From Dehalococcoidia bacterium (GTDB lineage Bacteria > Chloroflexota > Dehalococcoidia > Plut-88900): DNA of 64,000 nucleotides. A program made the translations under genes and the position numbers. Position 1 is the stretch's first letter, and each line of letters starts with the position of its first letter. Below are positions 692-58,381 of the stretch, piece by piece. Where the stretch lies: assembly GCA_965116945.1 (NCBI GenBank), contig OZ220734.1, forward strand, positions 1,906,709 through 1,970,708, read 5' to 3'. The notes under the pieces were generated by a model. The model saw only the letters and a list, made by a program, of their open reading frames with translations, searched no databases and had not been told where the DNA came from.

Positions 692-2866
<2,175 letters not shown>

Positions 2867-3299
2867 CTATGCGCTTCCGACATAGTAGCATCAACAACCG
2901 TCATTTGGAAGAGTTTGCACCAGCTCGATGGGGCAGCGACACTGCTGGCATTTCTATGGTTGTGGGGTTTCGTTTTCCGTTCTGTCTGTTGGGGTTTGGG
3001 TCGGCGATGGAAGGTCCGGGAATCAGTTTTCAGGGGGCGGGAGGCCAGCCTGGTTCAGCCCCGTGTTCCTGTGTCACATGGCAGACAGGCGAGGGGTCCT
3101 CGCCAGAGGGCGTCTCTGCCACCAGTTTTTCAGTTTTCCCGACCCACTCGGAGGGGTGGGTGGGTGTTTTCTCGCTGCCGTCGCTGGGTTAAAGGGAATC
3201 TCCGAAGGGAACGACGGGGGAGATTTTTCAAGGGCCATAAAGCCCGAGGTTTTTCGACAGGGCTCCTATATGAGGAGCGTGCCGCTTAATGTTGTGGAC

Positions 3300-3594
3300 C
3301 TTCCATCGCCTGGATGGACAGGGAAGGGGCGCGGGACCCGTGAAGATGAAGAGATGGCGCTGTTCGCTTGTGCCGCAACCTGCTTGCCTCGCGAGGGAGG
3401 GCGATTGGCCGGTCGCCCCTACAAGAGAGGGGAGAGGTATTGGGGTGGGCCAGGGCGTTGAGTCCTCGGATCGGGTCGGGTGGGCTTCCCTGGGTTTTTG
3501 GTTCCTCCTTGAAATAGGTGAGGTGATGTTCGAACGGTGTCGAGAATAGTACGGGTGTTCGTGTAGTGTCAAGGGGCAAATGTCCCACTTTCTG
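3300..3594 (-). promoter_or_regulatory. sigma70-like promoter plus conserved ~250 nt leader module (copy A), reading toward katG
   Basis: TTGACA at 3572..3567, an 18-nt spacer, and TATTCT at 3548..3543. The element AAAGTGGGACATTTGCCCCTTGACAC and ~250 nt downstream are near-identical to 57551..57803 on the other strand. The overlapping ORF-track peptides share KVGHLPLDTT(R/K)TPVL and PKTQGSP.DP.RGLNALAHPN, which reflects DNA duplication rather than a protein. Confidence 0.45.
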
Positions 3595-3612
3595 GGGGAT
3601 GGAAGTCTTAGC

Positions 3613-3666
3613 GTGGGTGGGGGGCAGGGTACCCACGAGGGGAACCCCTACAGGGGAGGGGGAATC
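3613..3666 (+). other. G-run cluster (potential G-quadruplex) in non-coding region
   Basis: GTGGGTGGGGGGCAGGGTACCCACGAGGGGAACCCCTACAGGGGAGGGGG contains four or more G3+ runs. Confidence 0.3.
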
Positions 3667-3772
3667 ACAGAGGCCGGAGATTGGTTGGCCTGGGCATCCT
3701 CTGCCTCTGTTCAGTACTGGGGAGGAGGGGGAGTGCTCCTCCCTCCCGCCCCGGGAATAATATGAGTCCCAC

Positions 3773-3838
3773 CCACCCGCCCTGTTTTAATGACATATCA
3801 AAAATGCAGTGCATTTTTGATATGTCTTTACCAAGGGG
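3773..3838. repeat. repeated intergenic element built around a 35-bp perfect AT-rich palindrome (copy 1)
   Basis: GACATATCAAAAATGCA-G-TGCATTTTTGATATGTC at 3792..3826, with shared flanks CCCGCCCTGTTT..AAT and TTTACCAAGGGG. A second copy lies at 17407..17471. Confidence 0.7.
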
Positions 3839-4026
3839 GGAGGGGAAGCAAGAGTAGAGGCAGGTGGATGTGGCGAGCACATGCGCCTGCCTTTGGTTTG
3901 GCAGAAAGGGTCTAAATTCACAAACGAAGTGCAACACTTGGTTAAGGTGTTGTCATGGAAAAAAGTTATGGACATATCACCATTGAAGAGAGATGTGAGA
4001 TTTCCCGACTACTCGAGAATGACGGA

Positions 4027-4090
4027 TTGGGGGTCGGGGGGAGGGGGAGAAGAGAAGAAGGGTGGGGGTGGCGAGACCCGGGGTGGGTCC
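4027..4090 (+). other. G-run cluster (potential G-quadruplex) adjacent to the 3' end of the CoA-transferase operon
   Basis: GGGGGTCGGGGGGAGGGGGAGAAGAGAAGAAGGGTGGGGGTGGCGAGACCCGGGGTGGG. A similar tract (TGACGGAGGGGGAGGGATGGGG) occurs at 17530..17565. Confidence 0.3.
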
Positions 4091-4102
4091 AGGGAGACAT
4101 TT

Positions 4103-5398
4103 CTAGCTGGGATTGTCTATGACGTATGACGTGCCGACGTGCCCATCGATCTCCATCTGAGCGTATTCCGCAGGGGTGCAGCCGAGGAGGTCTGAGTAGA
4201 CATAACCATTGTGTTCGCCGAGCCTGCATGGCGGCGTTCGTATACCGTTGGGGTGCCCCGACGCCTTCCACATGATTCCCGGGTAAAGGTGTGTCCCGCA
4301 ATCAACTTGGGTTAGCGACTGGAAAAATCCTCGAGAATCGTACTGGGGATCGGAGAAGGCATCCTCATCAAAGATGACCGGGCCCGCCGCGACGCCATGG
4401 GCCTGGAGCAGCGCGGAGATATCGTAAGGGTCATGGTTAAGTGTCCAACTGGTTATATGCTCGCCGATTTCCTCCTGATTGTTGTATCTGCCGGTCACGG
4501 TGGCAAAGCGAGGATTTCGGGCCCAATCCGGAGCCCCGAGGGCCTTTACGAAACCCTCCCACTCATCGTCAGTCCCAATCGCTATGGTCACCCACTTGTC
4601 CTCTCCCTTGCACGGGAAGCAATCGTGGGGTGCGAAAGACCAGTGTCGGTTCCCGATAGCCGATGGGATGCGGCTGTTCATGGCGTATTCGAGGATCTGC
4701 CGAGGCATAAAGGACGCCATGGACTCACATTGTGCCATCTCAATCTGGGTCCCCTTGCCGGTGTGTCTCCGAGCTCTCAGTGCACTCATGATGGCGAATG
4801 CCGCATACACCCCGGCTATCCCGTCTCCGACCACAGTAGTGCTGATTTCCGAAAAGTCGGTGTCCGCGTAGTTTCGGAGCCACGTGTGACCTGTTACCGC
4901 TTCGCCGTGGTTACCCATGGACCGGTAGTTTGTGTATGGCCCGTCAAGTCCGAATCCCGGCATTCTGACCATGATGATGTCAGGACGCTGCTTGCGGACG
5001 GACTCGTAATCAATTTGCAGCTTTGCCATTGTCGTTGGGGTGTTGTTTTCGACAAGTACGTCGCTGATATTGAGAAGGCTATTCAGGACGGCGCGGCCTT
5101 GGGGCCTGGTTAGGTCCATTGTCCCGCTGAGCTTGTTGCGGGCGTGGACGTTGAAGAGTGCCCACCGGTTTGCCCTGTTTTCACCAAGCTTGGAGCCGGG
5201 GTATCCCAGCCACCACATTGCAGGGGGAGGCTCTATTTTCTCGATAGACCAAACCCTGGTTGAAATGGGTGCGATCTGCGTTGATTCGACGCGAATTACC
5301 TCTGCACCCCAGTCGGCGAGCAATTGAGTAGTGTAAGGGCCGGCCCAGATCTGAGTGATGTCCAGCACCCGGATCCCTTCCAACGGCAGCCGACGCAT
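4103..5398 (-). CDS. CoA-transferase family III (CaiB/BaiF-like)
   Basis: 431 aa; N-terminus MRRLPLEGIRVLDITQIWAGPYTTQLLADWGAEVIRVES is the family-III CoA-transferase signature. The stop is 2 nt from the next paralog. Confidence 0.85.
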   Translation of the reverse strand: MRRLPLEGIRVLDITQIWAGPYTTQLLADWGAEVIRVESTQIAPISTRVWSIEKIEPPPAMWWLGYPGSKLGENRANRWALFNVHARNKLSGTMDLTRPQGRAVLNSLLNISDVLVENNTPTTMAKLQIDYESVRKQRPDIIMVRMPGFGLDGPYTNYRSMGNHGEAVTGHTWLRNYADTDFSEISTTVVGDGIAGVYAAFAIMSALRARRHTGKGTQIEMAQCESMASFMPRQILEYAMNSRIPSAIGNRHWSFAPHDCFPCKGEDKWVTIAIGTDDEWEGFVKALGAPDWARNPRFATVTGRYNNQEEIGEHITSWTLNHDPYDISALLQAHGVAAGPVIFDEDAFSDPQYDSRGFFQSLTQVDCGTHLYPGIMWKASGHPNGIRTPPCRLGEHNGYVYSDLLGCTPAEYAQMEIDGHVGTSYVIDNPS

Positions 5399-5400
5399 GT

Positions 5401-6606
5401 CTATATGACCCCCGTTTGTTTCAGTTTGCCCAGCTCTTCGCGGCTGAACCCCAGTTCTCCGCCAAATATCTCATCGTTGTGCTCTCCGAGCGCTGGCGCC
5501 GCTCTGCGTGCCGAGACGCGGGCATGGTCTATTGTGAAAGGTGATCCTGGGTAGGCCGTTAGACCGGTTTCCCCTTCGATTCGGTTCCAAAACCCACGGT
5601 AGGCATAGTGTGGATCGTTAAGAAGGTCGGAAGCGTTGTTTATCGGAGCCGCCATGGCCCTATGGTCCTGCGCTATGCGCCAGGCTTCCTGGTTGTCCTG
5701 GCGGAGGGCCCATTCCATAATACGAGACCGAATCATGTCGAAATTTTCGGACTCCTGTCGGGCGTCGGGGTCCGTGAAGCGAAAGTCGTGGGCCAGCTCG
5801 GGTGCATCGATTAAAGTGGGGAGCTGTTCAGTGGCAGCCGGGGTTGCCGCATCGAAGGCAATGTAACCGTTGCTGGTGGGCAACACTCCACTTAATGCGC
5901 TGATTCCGGCATCAATGCGCCCTCCCCTTTCACCCGTGTATTGGTAAGAGAGGAAGGTGAGGGTGCGGCGATCTATGTTGCCTGCTTGTATTTCCATGAT
6001 GGACATGTCCAGGTGCTCCCCAACCCCCGACACTTCAGCCTCGAAAAACGCAATCATCGTCGCAAGCGCTGTTGCGGTACCGGCCTGGTGAAATACTATG
6101 CCGTCCGCAATGTTGAGTGGAGGATGGTCAGGGGTGCCGGTCACGGCCATGGGGCCGCCCATCCCGTATTGTGTAATTTCGTCAGCCTTATAGTGTTTGT
6201 AGGGTCCGGATTGTCCGAAATTCGTTACCGATGCCATCACCAGCCCGGGATTGAATTTTGATAATTCGTCAAATCCGAGACCCAAAGTGTCCATAACGCC
6301 AGGGTCAAAGCTCTCCACCAGAACTTGGGCTGAAGAGACTAGCTCACTGAATACTCTCCTGCCGGCCTCGCTTCCTATGTTGAGCGTGACGCCGCGCTTA
6401 CCAAGATTCACATACTGGAAAGTTCCGCTTGCCTCATATGCCGGGACCATTCCGGGAAAGGGAGCAAGGCGCCGGGAGGGATCACCGTTCGTTGGGGCTT
6501 CAACCTTTATTACATCGGCGCCCTGGTCGGCCATTAGCCTTGCGCTGAAAGGTCCGGGAACGCCTTTGGAGAGATCGATGACTCGTATACCGTCAAGAGG
6601 CAGCAT
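5401..6606 (-). CDS. CoA-transferase family III (CaiB/BaiF-like), second paralog in operon
   Basis: MLPLDGIRVIDLSKGVPGPFSARLMADQGADVIKVEAP. The track ORF extends to 6804 through an implausible N-terminal extension; the internal ATG at 6606 gives a normal-length protein and a sensible divergent intergenic region. Confidence 0.75.
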   Translation of the reverse strand: MLPLDGIRVIDLSKGVPGPFSARLMADQGADVIKVEAPTNGDPSRRLAPFPGMVPAYEASGTFQYVNLGKRGVTLNIGSEAGRRVFSELVSSAQVLVESFDPGVMDTLGLGFDELSKFNPGLVMASVTNFGQSGPYKHYKADEITQYGMGGPMAVTGTPDHPPLNIADGIVFHQAGTATALATMIAFFEAEVSGVGEHLDMSIMEIQAGNIDRRTLTFLSYQYTGERGGRIDAGISALSGVLPTSNGYIAFDAATPAATEQLPTLIDAPELAHDFRFTDPDARQESENFDMIRSRIMEWALRQDNQEAWRIAQDHRAMAAPINNASDLLNDPHYAYRGFWNRIEGETGLTAYPGSPFTIDHARVSARRAAPALGEHNDEIFGGELGFSREELGKLKQTGVI

Positions 6607-17239: not shown

Positions 17240-17406
17240 GGCGGCATCTAATTATAGGTTCACTCCAATGGGGTTACAAATTGGTGAGAAGCCCAGAGGG
17301 AAGGCGTTGCCGACTTGATTGTTTTGCGATTTCAGGCACGGGTTTGATTGTTTAAGGAATCGGAGGGGAAGCCTCCCCTGTCCCACCCCGGGATTAAGGG
17401 GAGTCC

Positions 17407-17471
17407 CGCCCGCCCTGTTTAATTGACATATCAAAAAAGCAGTGCATTTTTGATATGTCTTTACCAAGGGG
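17407..17471. repeat. repeated intergenic element with 35-bp AT-rich palindrome (copy 2) in the lutA/amidase divergent region
   Basis: GACATATCAAAAAAGCA-G-TGCATTTTTGATATGTC at 17425..17459 (one mismatch between the arms), preceded by TTGACA and flanked by CCCGCCCTGTTTAAT and TTTACCAAGGGG. Confidence 0.7.
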
Positions 17472-17583
17472 TTAGGGACATCCGGCCCCGGACCACCGGG
17501 GATGGATTCCGGCTCTGGGGGGCCGGAATGACGGAGGGGGAGGGATGGGGAATAGCAAGGGAGGATAGGGCCGGCCTTCTTGA

Positions 17584-23996: not shown

Positions 23997-25316
23997 ATGA
24001 AACGTACATTCCCAGTTCTCAGACGCAAAATAAAGAAGAGTTGGGCCCTGCTTGCCGTAGCAGGGTTGATGGCCCTTTTGCTGGTCTTGGCGGCTTGTGG
24101 AGAGTCTGCAACCGCTACCCCGGAACCCGCCGATGAGCCGGACGAACCCGAAACCACGATGGATGATGACGCCGCCATGGACGATGAAGATGCTATGGTG
24201 AGCCACATCAGGCCCAAGTCTGAGTGGACAGCAGAGAATCCGGCTACCCTGGAAGAGATTGAAGCTGAGCTGACAAAGTACCGCGGCAAAAGCTTCACTC
24301 AGGCCAGCTGGGGCGGTGCTTGGCAGGCCGCTATCCGTCAGGGACACATGATCCCCTTCGCCGAAAAGTTCGGAATACAGGTTGTCGAAGACAGCCCAGT
24401 CGAGCTAGCCAAGATCAAGGCCATGGTTGAAACGGGCAACGTGACCTGGGACGTCGTGGACTTCGGCACCAGGTGGGTCTACACCCTCGGCGAGCCCGGT
24501 TTCCTTGCAGAACTCGACCCCGCGATCCACAACGGTTACCTTTCCGGAAACCCCGAAATCACGCAGACTCCCTGGAGTGGGGGCGCGGGTGTTCTCTGGT
24601 CCACCGGAATGGCATACACGTTGGATGAATATCCCGACCACGAGGGCGCTCCCAAAGACTGGGCGGACTTCTGGGATGTTGATGGCATCGACGGCCACAG
24701 GTCCTTGGGCAACAGGCCCAACGAGAACGTGATCTTTGCCCAGATGGCCCTCAACCCCAACGTATTCGACACAGTCGAAGGCAGGAACAGCATAGCCAGC
24801 CTGGACGATGCCCAGGTAGACCAGTCCTTCGCTAAGCTCGAGGAAATCAAGGACCACCTCGTCAACTGGTGGCACACCGGCACCGACTGCCCCCAGGGAC
24901 TGTTGTCGGGAGACTACACCATCTGCTCAGCCTGGAATGGCCGGATTTGGAACGCGCAGCAGGAAGATGATAGTTCTCCGCTGTACTACTGTTACGAGTG
25001 CGGGCACATCAACCAGACGGGCGTCTACTCGATCCCCGAGGGTTCTCCCAACCAGGAACTGGCCGAGCTTTACATGGCTTGGATGGGATACCCGGAGAAC
25101 GCGGTCCAGGTGTCCAGCTACATCACCTACGGACCCCTCCACGCCGAGGCTGTAAAACTGGCCGCCGATGTGATCGACCCGGCAATCCTCAACGACCTTC
25201 CCACTTCGCCCATTGCCCTGGAAAAGGTTATCATCATGGATGAGTACTGGCTGGGCACCAACCTGGATGCCGGTCAAATGCTGATCGAAAGATTCCAGGC
25301 CCTTCAGCAGCAGTAA
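23997..25316 (+). CDS. ABC-type solute-binding lipoprotein, PotD/PotF (polyamine/agmatine) family
   Basis: Lipobox LAACGES followed by an acidic low-complexity linker (ATATPEPADEPDEPETTMDDDAAMDDEDAM). The PotD-like core has SWGGAWQ, WDVVD, DWADFWD and SAWNGRIWN. The start is set at the ATG preceded by TAGGAGGGG. Confidence 0.8.
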   Translation: MKRTFPVLRRKIKKSWALLAVAGLMALLLVLAACGESATATPEPADEPDEPETTMDDDAAMDDEDAMVSHIRPKSEWTAENPATLEEIEAELTKYRGKSFTQASWGGAWQAAIRQGHMIPFAEKFGIQVVEDSPVELAKIKAMVETGNVTWDVVDFGTRWVYTLGEPGFLAELDPAIHNGYLSGNPEITQTPWSGGAGVLWSTGMAYTLDEYPDHEGAPKDWADFWDVDGIDGHRSLGNRPNENVIFAQMALNPNVFDTVEGRNSIASLDDAQVDQSFAKLEEIKDHLVNWWHTGTDCPQGLLSGDYTICSAWNGRIWNAQQEDDSSPLYYCYECGHINQTGVYSIPEGSPNQELAELYMAWMGYPENAVQVSSYITYGPLHAEAVKLAADVIDPAILNDLPTSPIALEKVIIMDEYWLGTNLDAGQMLIERFQALQQQ

Positions 25317-25580: not shown

Positions 25581-26969
25581 ATGCAATTTGGAAAGAAAAG
25601 AATCAAGATGAGCCGGCGACAGGGCATCCTGGGCGCGCTCGGTCTGGTCTTGGTGCTTATGCTCGTTGTAGCAGCTTGTGGCGAATCTGCCACGGCAACA
25701 CCCGAGCCTGAGCCCACTGCCATGATGGAAGAGCCCACCCCCGAACCGGCAATGGAGGAGCCTACCGCGACGGCAGTGCCCGGCGAGGTAGTTGAGGCCA
25801 CCAAGGCTCCCGAGCCCGATGATGACGATGCAATGGAGCCTTCAGGCCCCCGCCCCATCTCCGAGTGGACAGCGGATGAACCCGCTACCTTTGAAGAGAT
25901 CGAAGCCGCCCTTGAAGGCTTCAGAGGCTCCAGCCTTAACGTAGTATCCTGGGGTGGCGCCTACCAGGCAGCCCAGCGCCAGGCCTACTTCCTTCCCTTC
26001 CAGGAGCGCTTCGGAATCCAGCTGGTTGAAGACAGCCCCGTGGAGTACGCCAAGATTCGTTCCATGGTCGAGACCGGGAACGTGACCTGGGACGTAGTTG
26101 ACTCCGGTACCAGGGCCGTTTACCAGCTTGGCCCGACGGGCGACCTCGAAGAGCTCACCCCTGGCATCCACAACCGCTACCTCCCCTTCTTCCCCCAGGT
26201 AGCAGTTACTCCCTGGAGCGGTGGTGGCGGAGTCCTCTGGTCCACTGGTCTTGCTTACCAGAAGAACAAGGTTGACGAGCTCTGGGGCGGCAACGCTCCC
26301 GAGGACTGGACCGCCTTCTGGGACGTCGAGAAATTCCCCGGCACCAGGTGGATGGGACGCAGGGTGAACGAGAATATCTTCTTCGCCCACTTCAACCGCA
26401 CGCCTGAGATCCTGGACACCGTCGAGGGTCGGACCGCGATAGCGAAGCTTACCGACGAGCAGGTCGACCAGTCCTTCGAACAGCTCGAGGCCATTAAGCC
26501 TCACATCCAGTTCTGGTGGACCGGTGGTACGGACTGCCCGCAGGCCTTGATAACCGACCAGGCTGACATGTGCACGGCTTGGAACGGTCGAATTTGGAAC
26601 GCCCAGCAGGAAGATGGCGGCGACAACCTCCACTACTGCTTCGAGTGTGGACACCTGAACCAGACCGACGTGTTCTACATCCCGAAGGGCTCTCCCAACA
26701 AGGAACTGGCAGAACTGTTCATTTCCTGGACAGCCGAGCCACACATCAACGTAGAGATGATCAAGTACATCACCTACGGCCCCCTGAACCTTCAGGCCCT
26801 GCCGCTGGTTAACACTGACGTAGTCGACCAGCTGACCATTGACAACCTCCCCACCTCCCCGACCGCCCTTGAGAAGGCAGTCGTAGTGGACGAGGTCTGG
26901 TTGGGCACGAACCTCGACGCCTTGGCTGAGAGGATGGAGGCATTCCTCGCAGACGTGGCCGACAGTTAA
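25581..26969 (+). CDS. ABC-type solute-binding lipoprotein, PotD/PotF family (tandem paralog)
   Basis: Same architecture as the upstream paralog: lipobox VAACGESATATPEP plus a longer Pro/Glu/Thr/Ala-rich linker. RBS AGGAGAGCTTATG. Confidence 0.8.
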   Translation: MQFGKKRIKMSRRQGILGALGLVLVLMLVVAACGESATATPEPEPTAMMEEPTPEPAMEEPTATAVPGEVVEATKAPEPDDDDAMEPSGPRPISEWTADEPATFEEIEAALEGFRGSSLNVVSWGGAYQAAQRQAYFLPFQERFGIQLVEDSPVEYAKIRSMVETGNVTWDVVDSGTRAVYQLGPTGDLEELTPGIHNRYLPFFPQVAVTPWSGGGGVLWSTGLAYQKNKVDELWGGNAPEDWTAFWDVEKFPGTRWMGRRVNENIFFAHFNRTPEILDTVEGRTAIAKLTDEQVDQSFEQLEAIKPHIQFWWTGGTDCPQALITDQADMCTAWNGRIWNAQQEDGGDNLHYCFECGHLNQTDVFYIPKGSPNKELAELFISWTAEPHINVEMIKYITYGPLNLQALPLVNTDVVDQLTIDNLPTSPTALEKAVVVDEVWLGTNLDALAERMEAFLADVADS

Positions 26970-27471: not shown

Positions 27472-27547
27472 TGGCGTCCCTGGAGGGATTCGAACCCACG
27501 ACCCACTGCTTAGAAGGCAGTCGCTCTATCCACTGAGCTACAGGGAC
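27472..27547 (-). tRNA. tRNA-Arg (anticodon TCT), CCA encoded
   Basis: Reverse complement GTCCCTGTAGCTCAGTGGATAGAGCGACTGCCTTCTAAGCAGTGGGTCGTGGGTTCGAATCCCTCCAGGGACGCCA folds as a cloverleaf with anticodon loop CTTCTAA. Confidence 0.9.
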
Positions 27548-38587: not shown

Positions 38588-38859
38588 GATCGTGCTAGGT
38601 GGGGAGCTAGCGGTGCCCTGTACCTGCAATCCGCTATAGCGGGACTGAATTCCCCCTAGAGGTCCTGGTCCTTCGGACGCTGTATTTGTCCGGCGGGCGC
38701 CGATGATTGGGTCCTACGCGGCAGAAAACTGTGAAACCCGCCAGGTCCGGAAGGAAGCAACGGTAAGCGGTCCATTCTGGGTGCCGTAGGGTAGCCTGGT
38801 CTGAGCCCGACGGCGGATGGCAGGCCGGCGTAGCAGGATCGACGGGGGGTGCACGATCT
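38588..38859 (+). ncRNA. ffs: signal recognition particle RNA, long Bacillus-type (with Alu domain)
   Basis: GGGGAGCTAGCGGTGCCCTGTACCTGCAATCCGCTATAGC matches the 5' Alu-domain consensus. GTGAAACCCGCCAGGTCCGGAAGGAAGCAACGGTAAG is the domain IV helix-8 consensus. The 5' GATCGTGCTAGG pairs with the 3' GGTGCACGATC. The gene is overlapped by spurious track ORFs. Confidence 0.85.
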
Positions 38860-57396: not shown

Positions 57397-57486
57397 GTGC
57401 AGCATCGAGGCTCAACACTACACCCGCCGGCGAAGCCCCATCCCCCCCGACCAGGAATCCCTGCCCATTTTTCCCGCTATTGAACT

Positions 57487-57533
57487 AGGGGTAGAGGTTA
57501 GCGCTTTTGCGCCAACCTCTACCCCTGTTTTTC
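57487..57533 (+). terminator. rho-independent terminator after the envelope-gene cluster
   Basis: AGGGGTAGAGGTTAGCGC-tttt-GCGCCAACCTCTACCCCT followed by GTTTTTCT. Confidence 0.7.
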
Positions 57534-57550
57534 TCCCCCCTCTCCCTCCA

Positions 57551-57803
57551 AAAGTGGGACATTTGCCCCTTGACACCACTAAAACACCCGTTCTATAATG
57601 CCCCCAGTCTAGACCTCACACCCACCCCAAGGAGGAACCCAAAAACCCAGGGAAGCCCCCGAGACCCCACCCGAGGACTCAACGCCCTAGCCCATCCCAA
57701 CGGCCCTCGCGCAGGCCTGCGGCACAAGCGAACGTCGCCATCTCCTCATCCCGCTGGGTCCCGTGTCCTTTCCCTGGTCGTCAGGCGATGGAAAGACGCC
57801 CTG
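57551..57803 (+). promoter_or_regulatory. consensus sigma70 promoter plus conserved ~250 nt leader module (copy C), reading toward the fds operon
   Basis: TTGACA 57570..57575, 18-nt spacer, TATAAT 57594..57599. The upstream AAAGTGGGACATTTGCCCC and the downstream ~200 nt are near-identical to the reverse complement of 3300..3594. Confidence 0.5.
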
Positions 57804-58381
57804 GATAGAGCCACAGCGGATCGGCCATCCCCCGCCGAGGCGGTAGTCTCGGAGGCTGGTTAGCAGCGAGCTTACGCTATATCAAGCAGGGGTGGCGGGC
57901 CGGCTACCCCCGACCGGGACTGGATCCCGGAGGTCGGCCCGCCGGCGAGCTTGCGCCATATATCAAGCAAGGGGTCGCTGGGCCGCCTTGACCCTCGGGG
58001 GGCCCACGTAACACATGATGTCTGAGGGGGCCACAGCCCGATCACTGGCCCCCGCCATGCCTGCGGGCATTCAGAAGTGGGGTCAAGGCCCGGTTGTCTG
58101 CCCGGACAACTGGAGCACACATCGAGCGCTAGGGCGCGGCCGGCTGCAATCCGCCCTCGTGGCGGACCTCCAAGGCCCCCTACAGCCGGAACACCGCATT
58201 AGAGTAGAGGCCAACGGCTCACCAGGCGTCTTCCATCGCCAACCCTAAACCCGACAGACAACCCGAAAACCCCAAACCCTACAACTGAATAAGAACCCGG
58301 AGTGTTAGGAACCCTCGCAAACCGCCATGCCCTCCTTGAACGCCTTCTGTGTGTAGGGCATAATAGTGCGCAAGTTCACAC

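Follow-up and report, generated by a model that had tools for sequence, protein, structure and literature searches.

A dispersed, mosaic family of promoter-equipped, structured elements inserted upstream of diverse genes in Dehalococcoidia

The stretch of DNA analysed here (hereafter referred to as the window) comprises 64,000 nucleotides of a Dehalococcoidia bacterium (assembly GCA_965116945.1, contig OZ220734.1, positions 1,906,709 to 1,970,708) and carries two related segments, one on the reverse strand ahead of the katG gene (copy A) and the other on the forward strand ahead of the fds formate-dehydrogenase operon (copy C). The two segments belong to a dispersed family of mosaic elements and are not a shared redox switch. 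The element is a promoter-equipped, non-coding, structured and recombining insertion, locked in its orientation, which is found upstream of diverse genes and shows no specificity for katG, fds or redox genes. It has five parts, namely a sigma-70 promoter (P1), a Shine-Dalgarno-like (SD-like) box, a 5' domain, a middle domain and a G-poor, CA-rich tail. The role favoured for it, with about as much doubt as confidence, is that of a recombining RNA-gene cassette which forms a co-directional transcription unit upstream of the gene. The initial annotation, which had read the two segments as a promoter-plus-leader module common to katG and fds, is partly supported.

Architecture of the element in the two window copies

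The two copies share a 26-mer, AAAGTGGGACATTTGCCCCTTGACAC, with exactly two occurrences in the window (3566-3591 on the reverse and 57551-57576 on the forward strand; shuffle expectation 0.00) and an 18-mer, CCGAGGACTCAACGCCCT, which likewise occurs exactly twice against a shuffle expectation of 0.13. The 26-nt block containing the -35 hexamer, which the initial annotation had placed in both segments, was confirmed as an exact match at these positions. A repeat search aligned copies A and C in three collinear blocks of inverted orientation (54-62 nt, 81-89% identity), and nhmmer found only two element copies in the window. The equal spacer lengths claimed for the two promoters also hold, P1 being TTGACA-18-TATTCT in copy A (3543-3572, reverse strand; 10/12 consensus positions) and TTGACA-18-TATAAT in copy C (57570-57599, forward strand; 12/12). 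P1 occupies the same place in every family member, is a near-consensus sigma-70 promoter (scans of copies scored 10/12, 12/12 and 9/12) and lies about 45 nt ahead of the box in all copies with upstream sequence; three further promoter types occur among the other copies besides that of the window pair. The strong terminator described ahead of copy C is real (57488-57534, forward strand; -35.7 kcal/mol, z = -8.9, followed by the U-run UGUUUUUCU); it lies within the insert and is absent from the relatives at loci L088 and L089. The two copies point, as had been stated, at katG (ATG at 2812, downstream of copy A; Pfam peroxidase) and at the fds operon (2Fe-2S thioredoxin-like, Nuo51-like and molybdopterin subunits).

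The conserved block of the initial annotation is a real, transcribed-looking, non-coding and promoter-led module, but the true unit is larger. Conservation resumes 290-440 nt past that block in a 3' module (3017-2953, reverse strand, and 58222-58292, forward strand), which opens with CTTCCATCGCC(G/A)ACCC, continues for about 50 nt in C/A-rich, G-poor sequence and ends in ACAAC(C/T)GAA. CTTCCATCGCC pairs with CAGGCGATGGAA, a motif already marked in the earlier description, and is the complement of GGCGATGGAAG, which closes the block; the layout is thus P1, leader, box, 5' domain, helix-enclosed middle domain and CA tail, with a predicted RNA unit of about 560 nt in copy A and about 690 nt in copy C.

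On the reverse strand, copy A begins with P1, followed by the 8-nt palindrome GTTCGAAC at the predicted transcript start (3528-3535) and the SD-like box AAGGAGGAAC (3501-3510). Its conserved 5' domain (3296-3510; alignments, minimum free energy (MFE) fold and pair counts) includes an optional 51-nt hairpin seen in the alignments (3387-3437) and ends in the 5' strand of the closing helix (3296-3310; alignments and fold), which forms 15 bp with the 3' strand, GGACCUUCCAUCGCC (3003-3017). Between the two strands lies a middle domain designated type 1 (3018-3295), other types being present at orthologous katG loci, and the tail occupies 2953-3002 (profile match and alignment). On the forward strand, copy C has the leader palindrome GTCTAGAC (57607-57614), the same box (57629-57638; sequence and box census) and a short form of the 5' domain without the optional hairpin (57629-57804; alignment, profile, fold and pair counts), which closes with the 5' strand of the helix (57784-57804). 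Its middle domain (57805-58221) is of type 2, the type also found at L010, L023 and L025; the 3' strand of the helix, CCAGGCGUCUUCCAUCGCC, lies at 58222-58240, with distal pairs GACGC/GCGUC and CUGG/CCAG, and the tail at 58241-58292 (alignment and profile).

Across the family, the 5' domain is conserved over about 160-230 nt, and the swappable middle domain of 290-540 nt is clamped by the long-range helix GGCGAUGGAA/UUCCAUCGCC. The closing helix (10-21 bp) and the G-poor, CA-rich tail are present in all complete copies, the insertion measures 0.7-0.9 kb, the C-rich RNA region after P1 measures 0.52-0.75 kb, and the sense strand is strongly skewed towards C over G. The box AAGGAGGAAC is invariant in 30 of the 31 scored copies and occurs as a single box 30-45 nt past the predicted transcript start; it is predicted to be complementary to the 16S rRNA 3' end of the organism. 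No ATG, GTG or TTG was found 5-12 nt after it. A protein-coding reading was rejected on the grounds of this missing start codon and of indels of 1, 22 and 46 nt between copies, and the long open reading frames (ORFs) across the region are artefacts of GC-rich sequence. The palindromes at the predicted transcript start (GTTCGAAC, GTCTAGAC, GTTCGATCGAAC and CAGTTCGAACTG) vary in sequence and keep their symmetry, the leaders at L019 and L020 included, and could serve as an operator or as a site of RNA-RNA dimerisation.

Insertion, distribution and recombination of the copies

The katG orthologues compared share a synteny of two CoA-transferase genes followed by katG. The element is present at katG in genomes with KatG 97%, 96% and 90% identical, and two genomes with KatG 87% identical (L083 and L087) have an empty site with a 203-nt spacer only. 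All the compared katG loci share the promoter CTTCCAA-17-TAC(T/C)AT and the 5' untranslated region (UTR), and the empty sites place the right boundary of the element 0-2 nt before the -35 of this promoter. In the window, the native katG promoter (TTCCAA-17-TACTAT, 2882-2910, reverse strand), kept in relatives with and without the element, is outside it, and the post-tail spacer (2911-2952, reverse strand), which has no significant fold, is the last inserted part. At the fds locus, empty sites were found at L088 and L089 (FdsB 87% and 73% identical, spacers of 78 and 109 nt), where the native promoter TTGAAC-17-CATAAT (58336-58364 in the window) is kept. The stop codon in L088 is followed directly by GCCTGCCCCGC-TTGAAC-17-CATAAT, and the same promoter in the window is preceded by GCCATGCCCTCC; comparison with the relatives lacking the element gives an insert of 927 nt (57397-58323, forward strand), extending from the stop codon to 12 nt before the -35. 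Since the empty sites carry the same native promoters, they identify the element as an insert placed after the stop codon of the upstream gene and ahead of an intact native promoter. These native promoters, which both genes keep and which are present also in relatives lacking the module, speak against the proposed common control of katG and fds. The katG 5' UTR itself (2813-2881, reverse strand, and L083, L084 and L087) carries a GC-rich inverted repeat of the type GCGCGCC...GGTGCGCG, kept down to 81% KatG identity, which may be the real katG regulatory site.

About 40 copies were identified in total, with at least 11-12 per genome in two Dehalococcoidia metagenome-assembled genomes (MAGs), fewer observed in three others and further copies in one metagenome. 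A scan with an exact 18-mer, limited to one genome for each species, identified 27 true copies in four MAG species of Dehalococcoidia (OZ241876.1, 10; CBDBLV01, 12; OY760104.1, 4; OZ240215.1, 1), the remaining 15 matches being due to chance. An independent 5' pattern searched over metagenomes detected true copies in LXNJ01 only, on eight contigs and more divergent than the MAG copies, and three additional copies came from katG loci. The family is, as far as seen, confined to one clade of uncultured soil Dehalococcoidia. A search by nhmmer gave no additional diverged copies, either in the window or at the empty-site loci, and the literature searched yielded no description of such a Dehalococcoidia or Chloroflexota RNA. 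A plasmid or phage origin was considered and set aside, as blastn gave no match, and a candidate 'master' copy with an inner ORF proved to be the only gene-bearing copy, at L009, which is merely split by IS21 (3048-5662 of that locus; Pfam IstB_IS21 and rve/Mu-transposase C-terminal domains).

The mosaic character of the family is most evident at the katG locus, where four species have four combinations of promoter, 5'-domain form and middle domain within nearly identical flanks. At three orthologous loci of OZ241876 and CBDBLV, the 5' domains are 87-95% and the tails 82-95% identical, with an identity of 76-84% at four-fold sites, and the middle domains are only 50-57% identical, indicating that they have been replaced. 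The window copies have a common promoter with different leaders (GTTCGAAC versus GTCTAGAC) and different middle domains. As judged from these alignments, copies recombine, and promoters, leaders, optional hairpins and middle domains have been shuffled among them.

Presence/absence polymorphism at two orthologous loci in close relatives, the high copy number per genome within a narrow clade and insertion points 0-12 nt upstream of the native -35 would also suit a non-autonomous mobile element, the RNA of which would be a mobility intermediate or guide for a trans-acting reverse transcriptase or recombinase with a preference for the gap ahead of promoters. A large conserved RNA fold, needless for a plain DNA repeat, is in agreement with such an origin. 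It is nevertheless considered improbable: the junctions are without terminal inverted repeats or a target-site duplication, no associated protein gene was found among 40 loci (the nearby IS481 and IS21 transposases are separate insertions), and the location of P1 outside the transcript means that a simple RNA copy would lose its promoter. The mosaicism better fits homologous recombination between copies, and, the native intergenic gaps being short (78-203 nt), the site just upstream of the -35 may be the only one tolerated. The initial annotation had regarded copies at locations unrelated to promoters as the mark of a repeat resembling a miniature inverted-repeat transposable element (MITE); the dispersal and the polymorphism agree with a repeat of this kind, but the copies have their own promoter and a fixed orientation toward the gene start.

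Identical genes for 384-aa IS481-type transposases (rve, LZ_Tnp_IS481) are found about 260 nt upstream of P1 at L005 and L023 of OZ241876.1, where they lie in opposite relative orientations beside two different element copies.

Predicted fold, genomic context and probable role

In the MFE folds of the two copies (z = -2.8 in copy A, -1.5 in copy C), the closing helix reappears along with three helices nested in the 5' domain (CAGGGAAG/CUUCCCUG, GACCC/GGGUC and GAGGA/UCCUC), the last of which is listed as GAGGA/UCUUC for copy A. A 10-bp core of the closing helix is constant, and the extension beyond it differs on both strands according to type (GGUCC/GGACC; GACGC..CUGG/CCAG..GCGUC; AGGUUCCCGG/CCGGGAACCU), cognate strands forming duplexes of -14.2 kcal/mol on average as against -9.1 for the non-cognate ones. 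As the distal closing helix of copy C departs from that of copy A on both strands, the change is compensatory. A variable hairpin of the 5' domain may be short, long (+46 nt) or absent, and its basal pairs change together (GC/AU, GC/CG and CG/UA in the pair counts); a 22-nt hairpin is also optional in this domain, and the katG copy at L086 has lost the interior of the domain and kept the two outer helices as a hairpin. RNAalifold of 11 type-1 middle domains gave 79 pairs, few of them broken, with double changes in two of the 79. The internal UCCUC pairs about equally well with the box (-8.0 kcal/mol) and with the second GAGGA (-7.8 kcal/mol), so that the SD-like box may be switchable. The post-tail spacer has no consistent hairpin or terminator, positions varying among copies and folds being no better than those of shuffled sequences.

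Searches of Rfam 15 (4227 models including T-box, riboswitches, OLE, GOLLD, ROOL, HEARO, group I/II introns, 6S, tmRNA and RNase P) at the gathering threshold gave no match for either copy across the window or for 14 further variant loci, and at E <= 10 both copies had chance-level matches only (12.8-19.4 bits versus thresholds of 36-60.5).

A purely DNA-level repeat without an RNA role, such as mosaic debris of the repetitive extragenic palindrome (REP) or bacterial interspersed mosaic element (BIME) type or a nucleoid or recombination site, might be suspected from the nearby intergenic DNA, which is full of terminator modules, REP-like hairpins and a 73-nt palindrome repeat. Such an origin is very improbable in view of the strong strand asymmetry (a C-rich, G-poor sense strand), the near-consensus promoter ahead of every copy, the fixed orientation and the compensatory differences in the long-range helices.

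The next gene lies on the same strand in all 23 complete copies and in the three katG-locus copies, and co-direction with the next gene amounts to 26 of 27 overall. Upstream genes are often divergent, making co-direction automatic at those loci; in the tandem contexts (about six), the element always points at the start of the downstream gene and never at the end of the upstream gene. The downstream genes identified by Pfam, 17 over the MAG loci and the window, encode RpoB, UvrA, MoaA, an amidohydrolase, SecDF, Gln/Glu-tRNA synthetase (glnS), LeuRS (leuS), a Rieske oxygenase, Lgt, an SdhA-type flavoprotein, an M24 peptidase, MnmA, a thiolase-like protein and RibF at the MAG loci, and KatG and the Fds subunits in the window.

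This assortment bears directly on the earlier proposal of a shared promoter and leader that would subject both katG and fds to a single redox or peroxide regulator, for which the 26-nt -35 block common to the window copies and their position ahead of two redox enzymes had spoken. The same module precedes many unrelated genes in related genomes, the same RNA being found ahead of at least 15 unrelated housekeeping genes, and the examination of the genes downstream of other copies, which had been suggested as a check, returned no single functional class. The functional unrelatedness of these genes excludes a redox-specific role. Nor is the sequence ahead of the -35 a feature of the family, since other copies have different promoters, of three other types; the relatives with 87% identical KatG or FdsB are without the element and keep their native promoters. 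A common redox control is hence the least credible of the explanations considered. The absence of a shared functional class downstream applies also to any cis-acting leader specific to a gene class, whether a riboswitch, a T-box or a redox leader.

The alternatives of a cis leader or an independent RNA, between which the initial annotation had left the choice, remain the right pair of options. The ends were scored in 23 complete copies, comprising the MAG loci and the two window copies. The tail ends 54-190 nt ahead of the start codon in 14 of the 23 copies. There is no strong terminator between element and gene in 19, and the other four (L005, L008, L033 and L040) are followed by terminators of 12-19 bp, the RNA being intact in each. 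No intrinsic terminator was found after either window copy; Rho-dependent ends are not predictable. The lack of an intrinsic terminator in 19 of 23 copies makes the element probably an upstream co-directional transcription unit.

Under this favoured role, P1 would make the element RNA, and part of its transcripts would probably run through the native promoter to yield a second, long-leader mRNA. The SD-like box would probably hold a 30S subunit, by analogy with the STAB-SD boxes considered below, and the bound box together with the fold may protect the RNA from 5'-to-3' decay in the STAB-SD manner. The unstructured, C-rich and G-poor tail is a likely Rho entry site, which would limit read-through. 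Several points weigh against such a role. Transcription from P1, the 3' end of the RNA and the read-through are all inferred from the sequence; a strong terminator separates four of the 23 copies from the gene; and the LXNJ01 copy at L062, which faces convergent genes (DUF6295 and dienelactone hydrolase), indicates that the RNA is kept where no leader role is possible. The intact native promoters argue that P1 is probably not their replacement, no terminal inverted repeats or target-site duplication were found at the junctions (katG, L082 versus L083; fds, window versus L088), and the covariation support is real but thin, the copies of these close relatives being too similar.

Several of these points would be met by stand-alone RNA genes, a family of siblings acting in trans or structurally, for which the neighbouring gene is irrelevant. 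The 3' end would then be made by Rho on the CA tail or by added terminators, and the orientation would be fixed because insertions firing antisense are selected against. The 5' domain exceeds synonymous sites in conservation, the RNA is intact both in the four terminator-followed copies and at L062 despite the convergent genes, the neighbours keep their native promoters, and the tail is G-poor, unstructured and resembles a Rho utilisation (rut) site, all of which favour independent RNA genes. This main rival is possible, though clearly less probable than the co-directional unit, as 19 of 23 copies have no intrinsic terminator, the copies in tandem contexts all face the start of the downstream gene, no target or partner is known, and many copies with shuffled middle domains would be odd for a housekeeping RNA.

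Two more speculative forms, rather doubtful even when taken together, are an RNA-centred mobile element guided or copied upstream of promoters by a trans-acting enzyme, and a ribosome-engaging or self-assembling RNA, many copies of which would tune the expression of housekeeping genes; the latter is prompted by the invariant SD-like box, the 8-12-nt 5' palindrome and the ornate two-domain fold.

If transcribed as predicted, the element would constitute a new family of large structured RNAs without an Rfam counterpart, combining traits which are usually separate, namely the dispersal of mobile repeats, a gene-like promoter, an ornate fold and a ribosome-binding box without an ORF. It lies ahead of rpoB, aminoacyl-tRNA synthetase genes, secDF and uvrA in abundant uncultured soil Dehalococcoidia, and this position beside core genes means that it could be a general layer of gene-expression control or represent a new way in which a selfish element can safely persist beside essential genes. 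The filled and empty orthologous sites together with the module swapping provide a natural experiment. A caution for annotation also follows in that katG and fds are here not co-regulated via a shared motif.

Relation to known systems and to neighbouring repeats

The STAB-SD of cry3A in Bacillus thuringiensis is an SD-like box that binds the 30S subunit and blocks RNase J1 on a transcript from a promoter at -558 (PMC4113751). The present element resembles it in having a perfect SD-like sequence in a long untranslated 5' region where translation is not started, the box being close to the 5' end and followed by no start codon at a distance suited to initiation. It differs in that the box is inside a folded RNA of 0.5-0.75 kb repeated at many genes, and ribosome binding and stabilisation are only putative here.

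Correia elements, which are MITE-like repeats, are co-transcribed with their neighbours and can bring promoters and alter mRNA stability (PMC2649163, PMC10969869). Like Correia, BIME, RIME, ERIC and BOX repeats, the element is dispersed, intergenic, non-coding, polymorphic in presence and mosaic. Repeats of the Correia type, however, are 30-200 bp long, with terminal inverted repeats and target duplications, and occur in either orientation, whereas the element is 0.7-0.9 kb long, shows no inverted termini or duplication, and has a consensus promoter, a large fold and a locked orientation.

With the large ornate RNAs OLE, GOLLD and ROOL (PMC12286853), the element shares a length of about 0.5-0.8 kb, a complex fold and the lack of coding capacity, and with HEARO and other omega-type RNAs its multi-copy nature. 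Unlike OLE, GOLLD, ROOL and HEARO, it has no Rfam match and no prophage, IscB or TnpB neighbour, and it is set apart from the ornate RNAs by a promoter of its own for each copy, its position at gene starts and its interchangeable middle domain.

Several paralogous RNA genes per genome with their own promoters and a conserved core are a feature common to the element and to the sibling small RNAs Qrr, LhrC and Yfr2. These are less than 200 nt long, end in intrinsic terminators and occur in 2-7 copies, whereas the element exceeds them three- to fivefold in length, has no terminator in most copies and reaches a dozen or more copies.

A number of other features were observed within and around the two copies. 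The type-2 middle domain of copy C contains a direct repeat of about 30 nt, GCGAGCTT(A/G)CGC(C)ATATATCAAGCA(A)GGGG, at 57866-57893 and 57945-57976 (forward strand). A tRNA-Ser(TGA) of 96 nt called by ARAGORN inside the same copy (57906-58001, reverse strand) is a probable false positive, as Infernal and the sister copies disagree: the Rfam tRNA model gave no match on copy C even at E <= 10, and sister copies with this middle domain have no ARAGORN tRNA call. Descent of the element from a tRNA or tmRNA was accordingly rejected.

The surrounding intergenic DNA is rich in other repeats. A 73-nt repeat (3772-3844 and 17405-17477, 92% identical) is built around the perfect palindrome GACATATCAAAAATGCAGTGCATTTTTGATATGTC; one of its copies lies about 200 nt upstream of the copy A promoter, and a related palindrome has the same relative place at L085. 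The terminator module consists of (C)CAGTACTGAACTAGAGG, a long GC stem and CCTCTGTTCTTCT, and is found at 57488-57534 (forward strand), at 3650-3705 (reverse strand) and at many MAG loci (3906-3957 at L040). Its lead-in places stop codons (TGA, TAG) in two of three frames, and the module is placed ahead of the RNA element and in some cases behind it, in the manner of a portable terminator. A REP-like hairpin, GTCATTCCCGAGGAGTCGGGAATCC, occurs at 4000-4023 (reverse strand) and in the downstream regions of L005, L008, L020, L035 and L039, and a second repeat, CCCGTAGGGGCGACCGG(N)4GTCGCCC, is scattered in the intergenic DNA of the clade, a version of it forming the optional 46-nt hairpin of the 5' domain.

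Elsewhere in the window, a large-type bacterial signal recognition particle RNA (38590-38856, forward strand; 186 bits) and a tRNA-Arg(TCT) (27472-27547, reverse strand) were identified, together with two segments (24920-25138 and 26567-26785) that are 71-84% similar, lie 1647 nt apart and resemble tandem paralogous genes.

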